From Escherichia phage pEC-M719-6WT.2, in the sequence record OQ845958.1: a stretch of DNA of 64,000 nucleotides; one strand, written 5' to 3'. The notes under the pieces were generated by a model. That model ran no database searches. It saw only the letters and a program-made list of their open reading frames with translations, and was not told the DNA's origin. A program made the translations under genes and the position numbers. The stretch's first letter is position 1. The number at the start of each line of letters is the position of its first letter. Positions 23,541 through 24,899 of this stretch are shown piece by piece.

Positions 23541-23880
23541 TCTTACATCACATGTTTATCAATTGGCTGAATATGATATTGGTGCCAATTTATTATTAGG
23601 GATTGCCACCGGTATGCTTGGTGGTTTGGTTGGTCTGGTAATGACCACGGTTATGGCTGCAATCGAGGGAGTCATGCCTATTGAGATGGGCTTCTTTATG
23701 ATAATCGCTCCGGCTGTTGTGGCTTATTTTATCCCTGTTGTGTATGATATCTGTCACACAAATGCCTTGAATGCTCCTAGTCGGAAGAGATACGCTTCAG
23801 CAATGGCTGAGTATAATAAGTTCCTAGACAAAACAAAACGTAATGACCTTGAAACCTTTATTAAGGAATGTAAATCATGA
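23527..23880 (+). CDS. membrane protein with TFIKEC C-terminal tail
   Basis: 117 aa from ATG after SD GGAGG; hydrophobic core. Confidence 0.55.
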   Translation: MERPSLTSHVYQLAEYDIGANLLLGIATGMLGGLVGLVMTTVMAAIEGVMPIEMGFFMIIAPAVVAYFIPVVYDICHTNALNAPSRKRYASAMAEYNKFLDKTKRNDLETFIKECKS

Positions 23881-24167
23881 ATAAAATTGAAATTGCTATC
23901 CCCAAGTATTATGATGAGAAATCTGCAGAAAAAGCTATCTATTCTCTTCTAAATAAGACCTCTGAAATTGAAAAACACTGTGAAGAAATCGCAGATGAAT
24001 ATGGTATCCAATTCGGTACCGGTGATTATGGTTCAGGCCGTACATATTATCCTGTCGGTTATGAGTGCTCCCAGTGGTTTAAAGATGAAATTGAAAACAA
24101 CGGCGGCGAAGTTGAAAACGGTGTCGTTACAGTTGGTGCTTGGGTCTCCTCTTCGGCAATGTGCTAA
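23877..24167 (+). CDS. small protein, WVSSSxxC-tail family member 1
   Basis: 96 aa ending GAWVSSSAMC; tandem paralog array. Confidence 0.6.
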   Translation: MNKIEIAIPKYYDEKSAEKAIYSLLNKTSEIEKHCEEIADEYGIQFGTGDYGSGRTYYPVGYECSQWFKDEIENNGGEVENGVVTVGAWVSSSAMC

Positions 24168-24176
24168 GGAAACGCT

Positions 24177-24458
24177 ATGATGAATGATTACCGTAAAAAT
24201 AAAGAACTGGCTAACGCAGTAAATGATATCCATAAAGCTATTCGTCGTGCCGAGGAAATTGCAAACAAATATGAGACTCATTTTAATATATACCCTGCTC
24301 GCGGTATGGGCGGTGACTATTATTCTCCTGGTGCCTTGAAAGCTGACCTTGCCCATTGGGAAGAACATGGCCATCCTGAATGGGCTATTGTTAACACTCA
24401 TGACTATACAACTGACCTGGAAAATGGCGGATGGGTGTCCTCCTCTTCTGAATGTTAA
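24177..24458 (+). CDS. small protein, WVSSSxxC-tail family member 2
   Basis: 93 aa ending GGWVSSSSEC. Confidence 0.6.
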   Translation: MMNDYRKNKELANAVNDIHKAIRRAEEIANKYETHFNIYPARGMGGDYYSPGALKADLAHWEEHGHPEWAIVNTHDYTTDLENGGWVSSSSEC

Positions 24459-24466
24459 GGAATTAT

Positions 24467-24664
24467 ATGTCTCGTGAATTAGATTGTGCAATCCGTACTG
24501 CCGCGGCAGCTATTGAAAACGTTATCCAGATTTGTAAAGAAGAACGCGAAGAAGCTGATATCTACATTGATGGTGTTCGTGACCTAGAACGACATATTAC
24601 GCTTTATAATGGTTGTATTACAATTAGTGGTACCTCTTGGGTGTCCTCCTCTTACGAATGCTAA
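24467..24664 (+). CDS. small protein, WVSSSxxC-tail family member 3
   Basis: 65 aa from ATG after SD AAGGAA, ending TSWVSSSYEC; alternative start 24452. Confidence 0.55.
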   Translation: MSRELDCAIRTAAAAIENVIQICKEEREEADIYIDGVRDLERHITLYNGCITISGTSWVSSSYEC

Positions 24665-24674
24665 GGAATAAAAA

Positions 24675-24899
24675 ATGACTGATATTAACGAATTAGAAAA
24701 AGCTGCTCTTGAACTGGCTGCCCTGTATAAGAAAGTAAAAGATATGGCTTCTGCTCAGGATTTTGGTGTTGAGCTAGATGATTATGACGGTGAAGTTCGT
24801 CTTGAAGATTGGCTGAATAGCTCTTGTTACGGCGAAGAAGCTGGTCGCACCTTCGTTGCCCGCGCCGACGGTAAAATCTGGTACCCGAGCTCATGCTAA
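24675..24899 (+). CDS. small protein, divergent member 4 of WxSSxC-tail family
   Basis: 74 aa ending KIWYPSSC, internal WLNSSCY. Confidence 0.55.
   Translation: MTDINELEKAALELAALYKKVKDMASAQDFGVELDDYDGEVRLEDWLNSSCYGEEAGRTFVARADGKIWYPSSC

Follow-up and report, generated by a model that had tools for sequence, protein, structure and literature searches.

We analysed an array of four small genes in a 64,000-nucleotide (nt) stretch of Escherichia phage pEC-M719-6WT.2 (OQ845958.1), called the window below. The window belongs to a T4-like coliphage of the genus Gaprivervirus: its segment 23400-25400 is 96.9% identical to Escherichia phage vB_EcoM_RZ (RZ), and 229 phage records match this segment. 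Upstream of the array, the gene order is e.6, a gene like JS98 gp131, e.4 and e.3 (23527-23880). The four small genes follow, then an open reading frame (ORF) for a basic protein, orf75, and a gene with the domains DUF7277 and DUF7275 (Table 1); in the near-identical RZ, nudE, the lysozyme gene e and denV are found further downstream. An earlier note on this DNA, made from the letters alone, had described four consecutive small genes on the + strand, of 96, 93, 65 and 74 amino acids (aa), and these ORFs were confirmed. We name them A, B, C and E after the subfamilies presented below. The ATG of gene A overlaps the stop codon of e.3 (ATGA), the spacers inside the array are 9, 8 and 10 nt long (A/B, B/C and C/E), and the stop codon of gene E overlaps the start of orf75. 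An alternative in-frame ATG of gene C, at 24452, would give 70 aa. It is probably not used, and the true start is likely MSRELDC, because this start is conserved in RB69, Marfa, PEi20 and CIP9.

Table 1. Coordinates of the genes and junction units in the window (SD, Shine-Dalgarno site; HMM, hidden Markov model; pI, isoelectric point)
Feature	Position	Strand	Description	Basis
gene A	23877-24167	+	96 aa, subfamily A, tail WVSSSAMC	phrog_899 E=3.7e-23; family HMM E=4e-20
gene B	24177-24458	+	93 aa, subfamily B, tail WVSSSSEC	phrog_899 E=1e-19; family HMM E=6e-24
gene C	24467-24664	+	65 aa, subfamily C, tail WVSSSYEC	phrog_4882 E=2.4e-36
gene E	24675-24899	+	74 aa, subfamily E, terminal WYPSSC	phrog_899 E=6.4e-10; iterated family HMM E=2.5e-13
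A/B junction unit	24141-24172	+	tail codons, TAA, SD; 69% identical to B/C unit	repeat search
B/C junction unit (reference copy)	24432-24463	+	TGGGTGTCCTCCTCTTCTGAATGT TAA GGAAT	repeat search
C/E junction unit	24638-24669	+	91% identical to B/C unit	repeat search; comparison with SP18, VR26, JS98-like
orf75	24893-25120	+	basic 75-aa protein, pI 9.9, between array and enzyme gene	phrog_7065
DUF7277+DUF7275 gene, putative Pol-beta-type nucleotidyltransferase	25223-26182	+	319 aa	Pfam DUF7275 7.9e-76, DUF7277 2.3e-27

A small-protein family with a common tail

The four genes had been proposed to be paralogs, and this holds: A and B can be aligned from end to end (BLASTP E=2e-5), and A, B and E all match phrog_899. 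The body of the protein, a helix, a hairpin and a second helix (xDExGxxF...YGMGGxYxP), is recognised in A and B by the family HMM (Table 1). Gene C matches this HMM weakly (0.12) and is linked to the family mainly via its tail and N-terminal helix, and gene E matches only the iterated HMM. The N-termini (MNKIEIAIPK, MMNDYRKNKE, MSRELDCAIR and MTDINELEKA) have no common motif; conservation is C-terminal.

A profile search with the family against 1.84 billion cluster representatives (E <=1e-3) yielded at least 167 clusters at 50% identity, almost all of 72-145 aa and with a match reaching the last residue. We defined the family pattern as a protein of 60-150 aa ending in W-x-[SAP]-S-S-x-x-C-COOH. 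It is held by 134 of 146 representatives, and exactly so by A, B and C of the window; gene E has the shortened end W-Y-P-S-S-C and an additional motif copy inside the protein, WLNSSC (24810-24827). The ending W(V/Y)(S/P)SSxxC that the earlier note gave to all four proteins is thus right for A, B and C, but not for E, which stops two residues short. The terminal residue is a Cys in 138 of the 146 representatives, and a Cys lies within the last two residues in 145. The distance from W to the end is exactly eight residues in 141 of them, Ser occupies position -4 in 134/134 representatives and position -3 in 132/134, and 85 of the 146 have no other Cys, the sole Cys of gene B likewise being its final residue. 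Extra internal W-x-S-S copies were seen in 40 of the 146, for instance in P0106 and in gene E. In alignments of 31 and 147 sequences the W, S and C columns are invariant, and conservation is highest in the last eight residues, W-x-S-S-S-x-x-Cys. The C-terminal motif noticed in the window is therefore conserved at the protein level in homologs. The family is acidic, with a median pI of 4.5 over the 146 representatives, and 4.3-5.4 for the window proteins.

An AlphaFold2 model of B, based on the 147-sequence alignment, reached a predicted local distance difference test (pLDDT) score of 95.2 and a predicted template modelling score (pTM) of 0.81. This run superseded one with a shallow 20-sequence alignment, which gave a poor model (pLDDT 56). 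The predicted elements are a helix (2-31), a hairpin of the YGMGG type (35-41/44-49), a second helix (51-63), a strand (84-88, GGWVS) and a last short helix (89-92). The tail falls in the strand 84-88 and the helix 89-92, and is therefore integral to the predicted fold.

Neither Pfam nor NCBIfam has a model matching the small proteins. Sequence searches of the PDB with them gave nothing significant, the matches being helical design proteins on the N-terminal helix, and no significant structural similarity was found with the YefM/Phd/RelB antitoxin fold. A word-indexed homolog search with B alone returned close relatives only. The window proteins do match two unannotated PHROG clusters, phrog_899 and phrog_4882 ('unknown function'), with E values of 6e-10 to 2e-36. 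The PHROG entries carry no record of the common tail, of the unity of the two clusters or of a link with DUF7275. What is defined here is thus a large phage-restricted family with a strict C-terminal Cys signature and a confidently predicted fold, without a Pfam model or a relative of solved structure. Several GenBank records give these small genes plainly spurious names, such as 'major capsid protein', 'tail completion protein', 'malate synthase', 'transposase' or 'CAZy families GH13 protein'. Elsewhere in the window (45689-45997, +), an acidic ORF of 102 aa shows a weak match with the N-terminal half of the family (…LAKEEGIDFAV…; iterated HMM E=0.0012). It lacks the W-x-S-S…C tail, and may represent a distant relative without a tail or match by chance. 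The T4 gene e.2 (102 aa, T4 locus 4653-4961), which like the array comes directly after e.3, is unrelated and was rejected as a family member.

Five subfamilies, A to E, can be traced as orthologs across several phage genera. All five were found in Marfa, PEi20, CIP9 and in Gaprivervirus/Dhakavirus, and subsets in the other lineages examined: A, B and C in Mosigvirus RB69, A, B and E in Moonvirus and Serratia phage 92A1, B and D in the Erwinia jumbo phage Kaldavass, and a B-like gene, E and A in Phapecoctavirus. The order in Marfavirus and Kanagawavirus is A, B, E, D, an unrelated gene, then C. Subfamily A is represented in every T4-like genus examined, and orthologs of gene E occur in Marfa, Moon, PEi20, CIP9, Serratia 92A1 and Phapecoctavirus. 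The orthologs of B are 51-55% identical in RB69, Marfa, Moon, PEi20, CIP9 and Serratia 92A1, and 39% in Kaldavass; identity from paralog to paralog is 21-30%. These comparisons show the genes to be ancient paralogs. In RB69, the subfamily-A gene (locus 2179-2485) is split into ORF139c and ORF138c, the latter with the tail WVSSPALC, either as a frameshift/pseudogene or by a sequencing error.

Linkage to a DUF7275 gene

In the window, the DUF7275 gene starts 324 nt after the stop codon of gene E, on the same strand, and a DUF7275 gene follows the array in every genome examined with enough downstream sequence. The same was seen in two metagenomic contigs, one with a single family member directly upstream of the enzyme gene (L025), the other, GC-rich, with four tandem members at this place (L027). 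A reverse test was then made, in which 80 IMG/VR DUF7275 loci were fetched starting from the enzyme. Between 1 and 6 family members were present upstream in 75 of them. All 236 members found in these loci are on the enzyme strand, and the nearest member ends upstream of the enzyme gene in 75/75 loci, at a median distance of 352 nt (maximum 1622 nt). Over the 80 loci, the tail pattern was found in 215 of 2653 small ORFs on the enzyme strand, versus none of the 2810 on the opposite strand. An unbiased clustering of ORFs recovered the small-protein family in 70 of the 80 loci, and the next commonest family in at most 29. This means that the linkage is not a matter of general T4-like synteny. The association was seen in Straboviridae, Phapecoctavirus, Otagovirus, jumbo phages and the GC-rich metagenomic contig. 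With one genome per species (185,579 species), 6 matches to the linked DUF7275 gene were obtained, all on contigs of metagenome-assembled genomes (MAGs), and 4 of these 6 have family members upstream. We conclude that the linkage of the small-protein family with DUF7275 is strong and independent of lineage. This link, which lies beyond both the segment and the hypothesis of the earlier note, is the more interesting result.

Three of the loci, on IMG/VR contigs of ~168 kb (L088, L091 and L097), carry the largest arrays, with five tandem members upstream of the enzyme and one additional member ~1 kb downstream. Their tails are more varied (…WMASASSC, …GWNSSNC, …GWQGSSC and …GWYSSHC).

The DUF7275 family comprises 731 GenBank phage records and 2551 clusters at 90% identity. 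By inspection of alignments, G6-S7 and D25-x-D27 are invariant in 121 enzyme homologs, and E69 is invariant in a 9-sequence set and nearly so in a 30-sequence set. The N-terminus of the enzyme thereby agrees with the motifs hG[GS] ... [DE]h[DE]h ... h[DE]h, the signature of Pol-beta nucleotidyltransferases, and a few depositors annotate the DUF7275 protein as a nucleotidyltransferase. We therefore call the DUF7277-DUF7275 protein a putative Pol-beta-type nucleotidyltransferase. A Pfam scan of 30 members gave a weak DUF6036 match in two (E=0.0047), and hhalign of the enzyme against an approximate sequence of kanamycin nucleotidyltransferase gave a probability of 0.9%.

A literature search found no paper on these small genes or on the DUF7277/DUF7275 domains. 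In T4, neither the small-protein family nor a DUF7275 gene is present at the syntenic site, and no DUF7275 gene lies between e.3 and nudE; this is probably why neither component has been studied.

Junction repeats and cassette number

A near-identical unit of ~30 nt had been reported at 24141, 24432 and 24638. The 31-mer TGGGTGTCCTCCTCTTCTGAATGTTAAGGAA is exact at 24432 alone. It occurs with 3 mismatches at 24638 (28/31 identical), and with 10 mismatches at 24141 (69% over 32 nt), so that there are two near-identical copies, not three. As a control for chance, 100 shuffles of the window gave zero 31-mer matches at <=3 mismatches. The unit consists of the last eight codons of a gene, its stop codon and an AAGGA SD that starts within this stop codon, with the layout TGG-GTx-TCx-TCx-TCx-xxx-xxx-TGy, then TAA, then GGAA. 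The composition described in the earlier note (last codons, stop codon and SD of the next gene) is correct for the three junctions, but not after gene E, where the tail WYPSSC is followed by AAATTAAAG instead of AAGGAA.

Distant homologs (RB69, Marfa, Moon, PEi20 and Kaldavass) keep the tail peptide with different codons; the 3′ end of gene B in RB69, for instance, is tgggtcgcatcttctcacacttgctaa, and that of gene C in Marfa tggcagagtagctcacttgactgttga. As distant orthologs keep the peptide and not the nucleotides, selection acts mainly on the peptide and the translation signals. The likeness of the junctions stems mainly from the conserved C-terminal octapeptide plus the stop codon and SD, and does not reflect a homogenised linker. 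Promoter-like matches in 21500-27000 were at chance level (18 found versus 15.8 expected). The A/B unit is overlapped by one 9/12 match (24153-24181), and the B/C and C/E units contain none. No terminator-like site was found within 23877-24899.

Eighteen close relatives were compared for cassette losses. Most have five genes, A-B-C-D-E, among them SP18, VR20, VR26, a JS98-like phage, MN01 and dhaeg, and four genes are present in the window, RZ, EAWsc9, TH40, P8 and CJ20. The comparison across related phages proposed in the earlier note thus revealed a varying cassette number, with deletion end-points inside the junction unit, and not a single fixed gene. In the relatives that have it, gene D encodes 69-76 aa ending in GFW[FY]xSSMxC.

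Two kinds of four-gene arrays were found. In CJ20, gene C is missing: a normal B body ends with WVSSSYEC, the tail of C, followed by the C/D spacer. The B body is joined to the C tail within the common 16-mer TGGGTGTCCTCCTCTT, the first 16 nt of the B/C unit, which places the crossover inside this 16-nt identity. The window, RZ, EAWsc9, P8 and TH40 lack gene D, and their C tail TGCTAAGG runs into a spacer of the D/E type, AATAAAAAATGACTGAT. The end-points therefore lie within the 10-22 nt of imperfect homology between the C/D and D/E junctions. In the window, the C/E junction, where the C tail is joined to the D/E-type spacer ggaataaaaaatg, has the sequence expected of a scar left by deletion of gene D. 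The genomes without D do not group together in a neighbour-joining tree built from e.3-A-B-C, but occupy two separate positions, indicating at least two losses of D, or recombinational transfer, besides the loss of C in CJ20. Counted as losses, these events make at least three independent single-cassette losses among the 18 relatives. No duplication of a cassette was observed among the relatives compared.

The 3′ half of gene A is overlapped by an ORF in another reading frame (23995-24180, +). UPEC07, MN01 and one IMG/VR phage have a shortened A/B spacer (TAATATGATG, without SD), which fuses this ORF in frame to B (129-151 aa). The fusion is probably an annotation artefact; it still shows that the A/B junction varies too.

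These junctions recall the PeSLs of T4-type phages, intergenic regulatory cassettes in which an early promoter is combined with a stem-loop terminator, and which are recombination points for gene deletion, insertion and replacement between close relatives (Arbiol et al. 2010, PMC2839356; Comeau et al. 2014, PMC4122927). In both cases, short conserved repeats between small non-essential genes of hyperplastic T4-like regions are points of recombination. Unlike PeSLs, the repeat described here is made of coding sequence, stop codon and SD, with no promoter above chance and no RNA structure. At the DNA level it is a coding-sequence variant of the short-repeat modular shuffling of the PeSL type, which means that coding sequence can fill this role, a peptide tail, stop codon and SD providing direct repeats for clean gene deletion.

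Interpretation and neighbouring sequence

The explanation that we favour, with a confidence a little better than even, is that the array is a translationally coupled operon segment of ancient paralogs (A, B, C and E, D having been deleted) with a peptide-driven repeat, and that it acts with the DUF7275 enzyme. Each small protein is predicted to be a compact alpha/beta domain, in which a long helix at the N-terminus precedes a beta-hairpin with the YGMGG turn and another helix; the terminal W-x-S-S-S-x-x-Cys-COOH forms the last strand and a short helix. The repeats, which end in the AAGGA ribosome-binding site for the following gene, are kept alike mainly because selection acts on the peptide and on translation signals. 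As a side effect, the short direct repeats at the junctions serve as recombination substrates that delete whole cassettes. We infer that the small proteins and the downstream DUF7277-DUF7275 putative nucleotidyltransferase act jointly, the former being most likely its substrates, carriers, or specificity/regulatory subunits, which would offer their Ser-rich, Cys-terminated tail to the enzyme.

How they would do so is a matter of speculation: the enzyme might nucleotidylylate, or otherwise use, the tail (the Ser pair, the terminal Cys thiol or the carboxylate), and the paralogs might be alternative substrates, carriers or specificity subunits. Taken to its most specific form, this gives a two-component module of virulent phages, in which an enzyme of the Pol-beta type acts on or through 1-6 carrier-like proteins of a new fold via their W-x-S-S-S-x-x-Cys tail, by nucleotidylylation of Ser or of the C-terminus, or with the terminal thiol in a relay, each paralog directing it to a different target. 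We put this forward tentatively, as a possibility that we would not bet on. It covers two blocks of phage 'dark matter' together, the small-protein family and the DUF7275 enzyme family.

Pairs of a nucleotidyltransferase and a small protein substrate are known in GlnD-PII, MntA-HepT, and CitX/MdcG with acyl-carrier proteins; CitX and MdcG transfer a prosthetic group derived from a nucleotide onto a Ser in a ~100-aa carrier protein. As in these systems, a putative Pol-beta-type gene adjoins small proteins with hydroxyl side chains that might be modified. The locus differs from them by the lack of a sequence or fold match, and by having several paralogous small proteins per enzyme, which is unusual. 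Sulfur carriers of the DsrC/TusE type have an essential Cys at or beside the C-terminus that is delivered into a partner enzyme, and the present family shares with them a small protein with a Cys at its extreme C-terminus. A further parallel is offered by the internal protein (IP) loci of T-even phages, where, as reportedly described by Repoila et al. in 1994, a conserved N-terminal capsid-targeting sequence is cleaved by the prohead protease. IP loci also are polymorphic tandem small genes with a short conserved terminal peptide and a differing remainder. The array differs from IP loci in that its conserved element, an octapeptide, is at the C-terminus, its proteins have unrelated N-termini, and their bodies are conserved between orthologs.

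Several points weigh against a joint role with the enzyme as set out above. No family member was detectable in 5 of the 80 enzyme loci, nor next to the shorter DUF7275 homologs of the three actinophages and one Vibrio phage examined. The assignment as nucleotidyltransferase comes from motif inspection and the annotations of a few depositors. A Pfam scan of 121 enzyme members gave no match to a nucleotidyltransferase family, and phmmer and profile searches of the PDB with the enzyme returned no nucleotidyltransferase, with chance-level matches to photosystem I only. The interaction is deduced from gene order, and synteny could reflect co-regulation only. The tail is predicted to lie within the fold and not on a free arm, so that a purely structural role would fit too. 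Finally, that gene D was lost rather than gained is deduced from its distribution, not from an observed direction of change.

The main rival explanation is that the small proteins are independent acidic effectors of host takeover or anti-defence, for example mimics or inhibitors that each have their own target among the host proteins, and that DUF7275 is merely co-located in the early region. The acidity of the family speaks for it, as do the position of the genes within the hyperplastic early region (e.x) of a T4-like genome, the multiple paralogs, typical of effector families, and the restriction to phages (the only 6 DUF7275 matches among the species genomes were on MAG contigs). Yet the linkage with DUF7275 persists in unrelated phage lineages that have no other common neighbour, and an invariant terminal Cys is unusual for simple mimics. 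We consider this explanation unlikely, while giving it more weight than any other rival.

The hypothesis of the earlier note was a cassette array, with junctions kept uniform by recombination or conversion while the cargo diversifies. Spelled out, homogenisation would be active and diversification rapid, for instance under host-defence pressure. In its favour are the cassette number, which differs between close relatives with deletion breakpoints in the junctions, the cassette order, which varies with the genus (A-B-C-D-E versus A-B-E-D-x-C), and the 16-nt run with rare codons shared by the B and C tails. Ongoing homogenisation should produce an excess of B/C synonymous matches within genomes, and none was found: of 5 positions, 3.24 matched within genomes and 3.20 between genomes (permutation p=0.64). 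The A junction is only 69% identical, and the other genera keep the tail peptide without its nucleotides. As for the cargo, the nucleotide diversity of the bodies in 17 close relatives is 0.16 for A, 0.10 for B and 0.085 for C, similar to that of e.3 (0.10), and the subfamilies are orthologously conserved across genera. Diversity is lower in the tail and junction segments (B 0.054, C 0.033). Neither half of the hypothesis was supported by these tests, and we regard it as largely refuted. The codons GTG-TCC-TCC-TCT, with genome-wide frequencies of 0.15, 0.13, 0.13 and 0.24, are common to the B and C tails in the Gaprivervirus/Dhakavirus clade only, so a single old conversion event, or shared descent, in this lineage probably accounts for the extra nucleotide identity of the two tails.

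The other rivals have much less to recommend them. The small proteins could be precursors resembling those of ribosomally synthesised and post-translationally modified peptides (RiPPs), the conserved and sometimes repeated tail being a core peptide that is nucleotidylylated or otherwise tailored, then released. Tandem small genes do adjoin a putative modifying enzyme, and the 40 representatives with at least two W-x-S-S copies would fit. We nevertheless find this very improbable: the entire protein, tail included, is confidently modelled as a folded domain (pLDDT 95), no protease, transporter/exporter or known maturase was found among the conserved neighbours by ORF clustering of the 80 loci, and the core-like region is invariant while the remainder varies, which most RiPP families are not known to show. 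A toxin-antitoxin-like pair, with a toxic nucleotidyltransferase restrained by small antitoxin-like proteins, has precedents in MenT and AbiEii, which are nucleotidyltransferase toxins with small partners. It would be atypical for one enzyme to have as many as six paralogous 'antitoxins', and the module is essentially absent from bacterial genomes, which leaves this idea, if anything, slightly less credible than the preceding one. Finally, an RNA element at the junction (an SD-sequestering hairpin or a processing site, peptide conservation being secondary) has next to no chance of being right: pairing of AAGGAA with the pyrimidine-rich run UCCUCCUCUU, 12-15 nt upstream, is conceivable, but the junction RNAs fold no better than shuffles (z = +1.65, +1.64, -0.06 and +0.31), and distant orthologs encode the preserved peptide by other codons.

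Between gene E and the DUF7275 gene, the sequence (24893-25222) is hypervariable. The window has only orf75 there, which is not a member of the small-protein family and is absent from P8, VR20 and VR26, and relatives have 0-4 extra small ORFs (109, 66, 55 and 76-79 aa). Just upstream of the DUF7275 gene of the window, there is a stem-loop, ATCACA-AGGA-TGTGAT (25125-25140), and after it a promoter-like TATACA-17-TATCAT (25165-25193); this pair (25125-25193) resembles a cassette of the PeSL type. In P8, VR20 and VR26, the stem-loop comes immediately after the stop codon of gene E.

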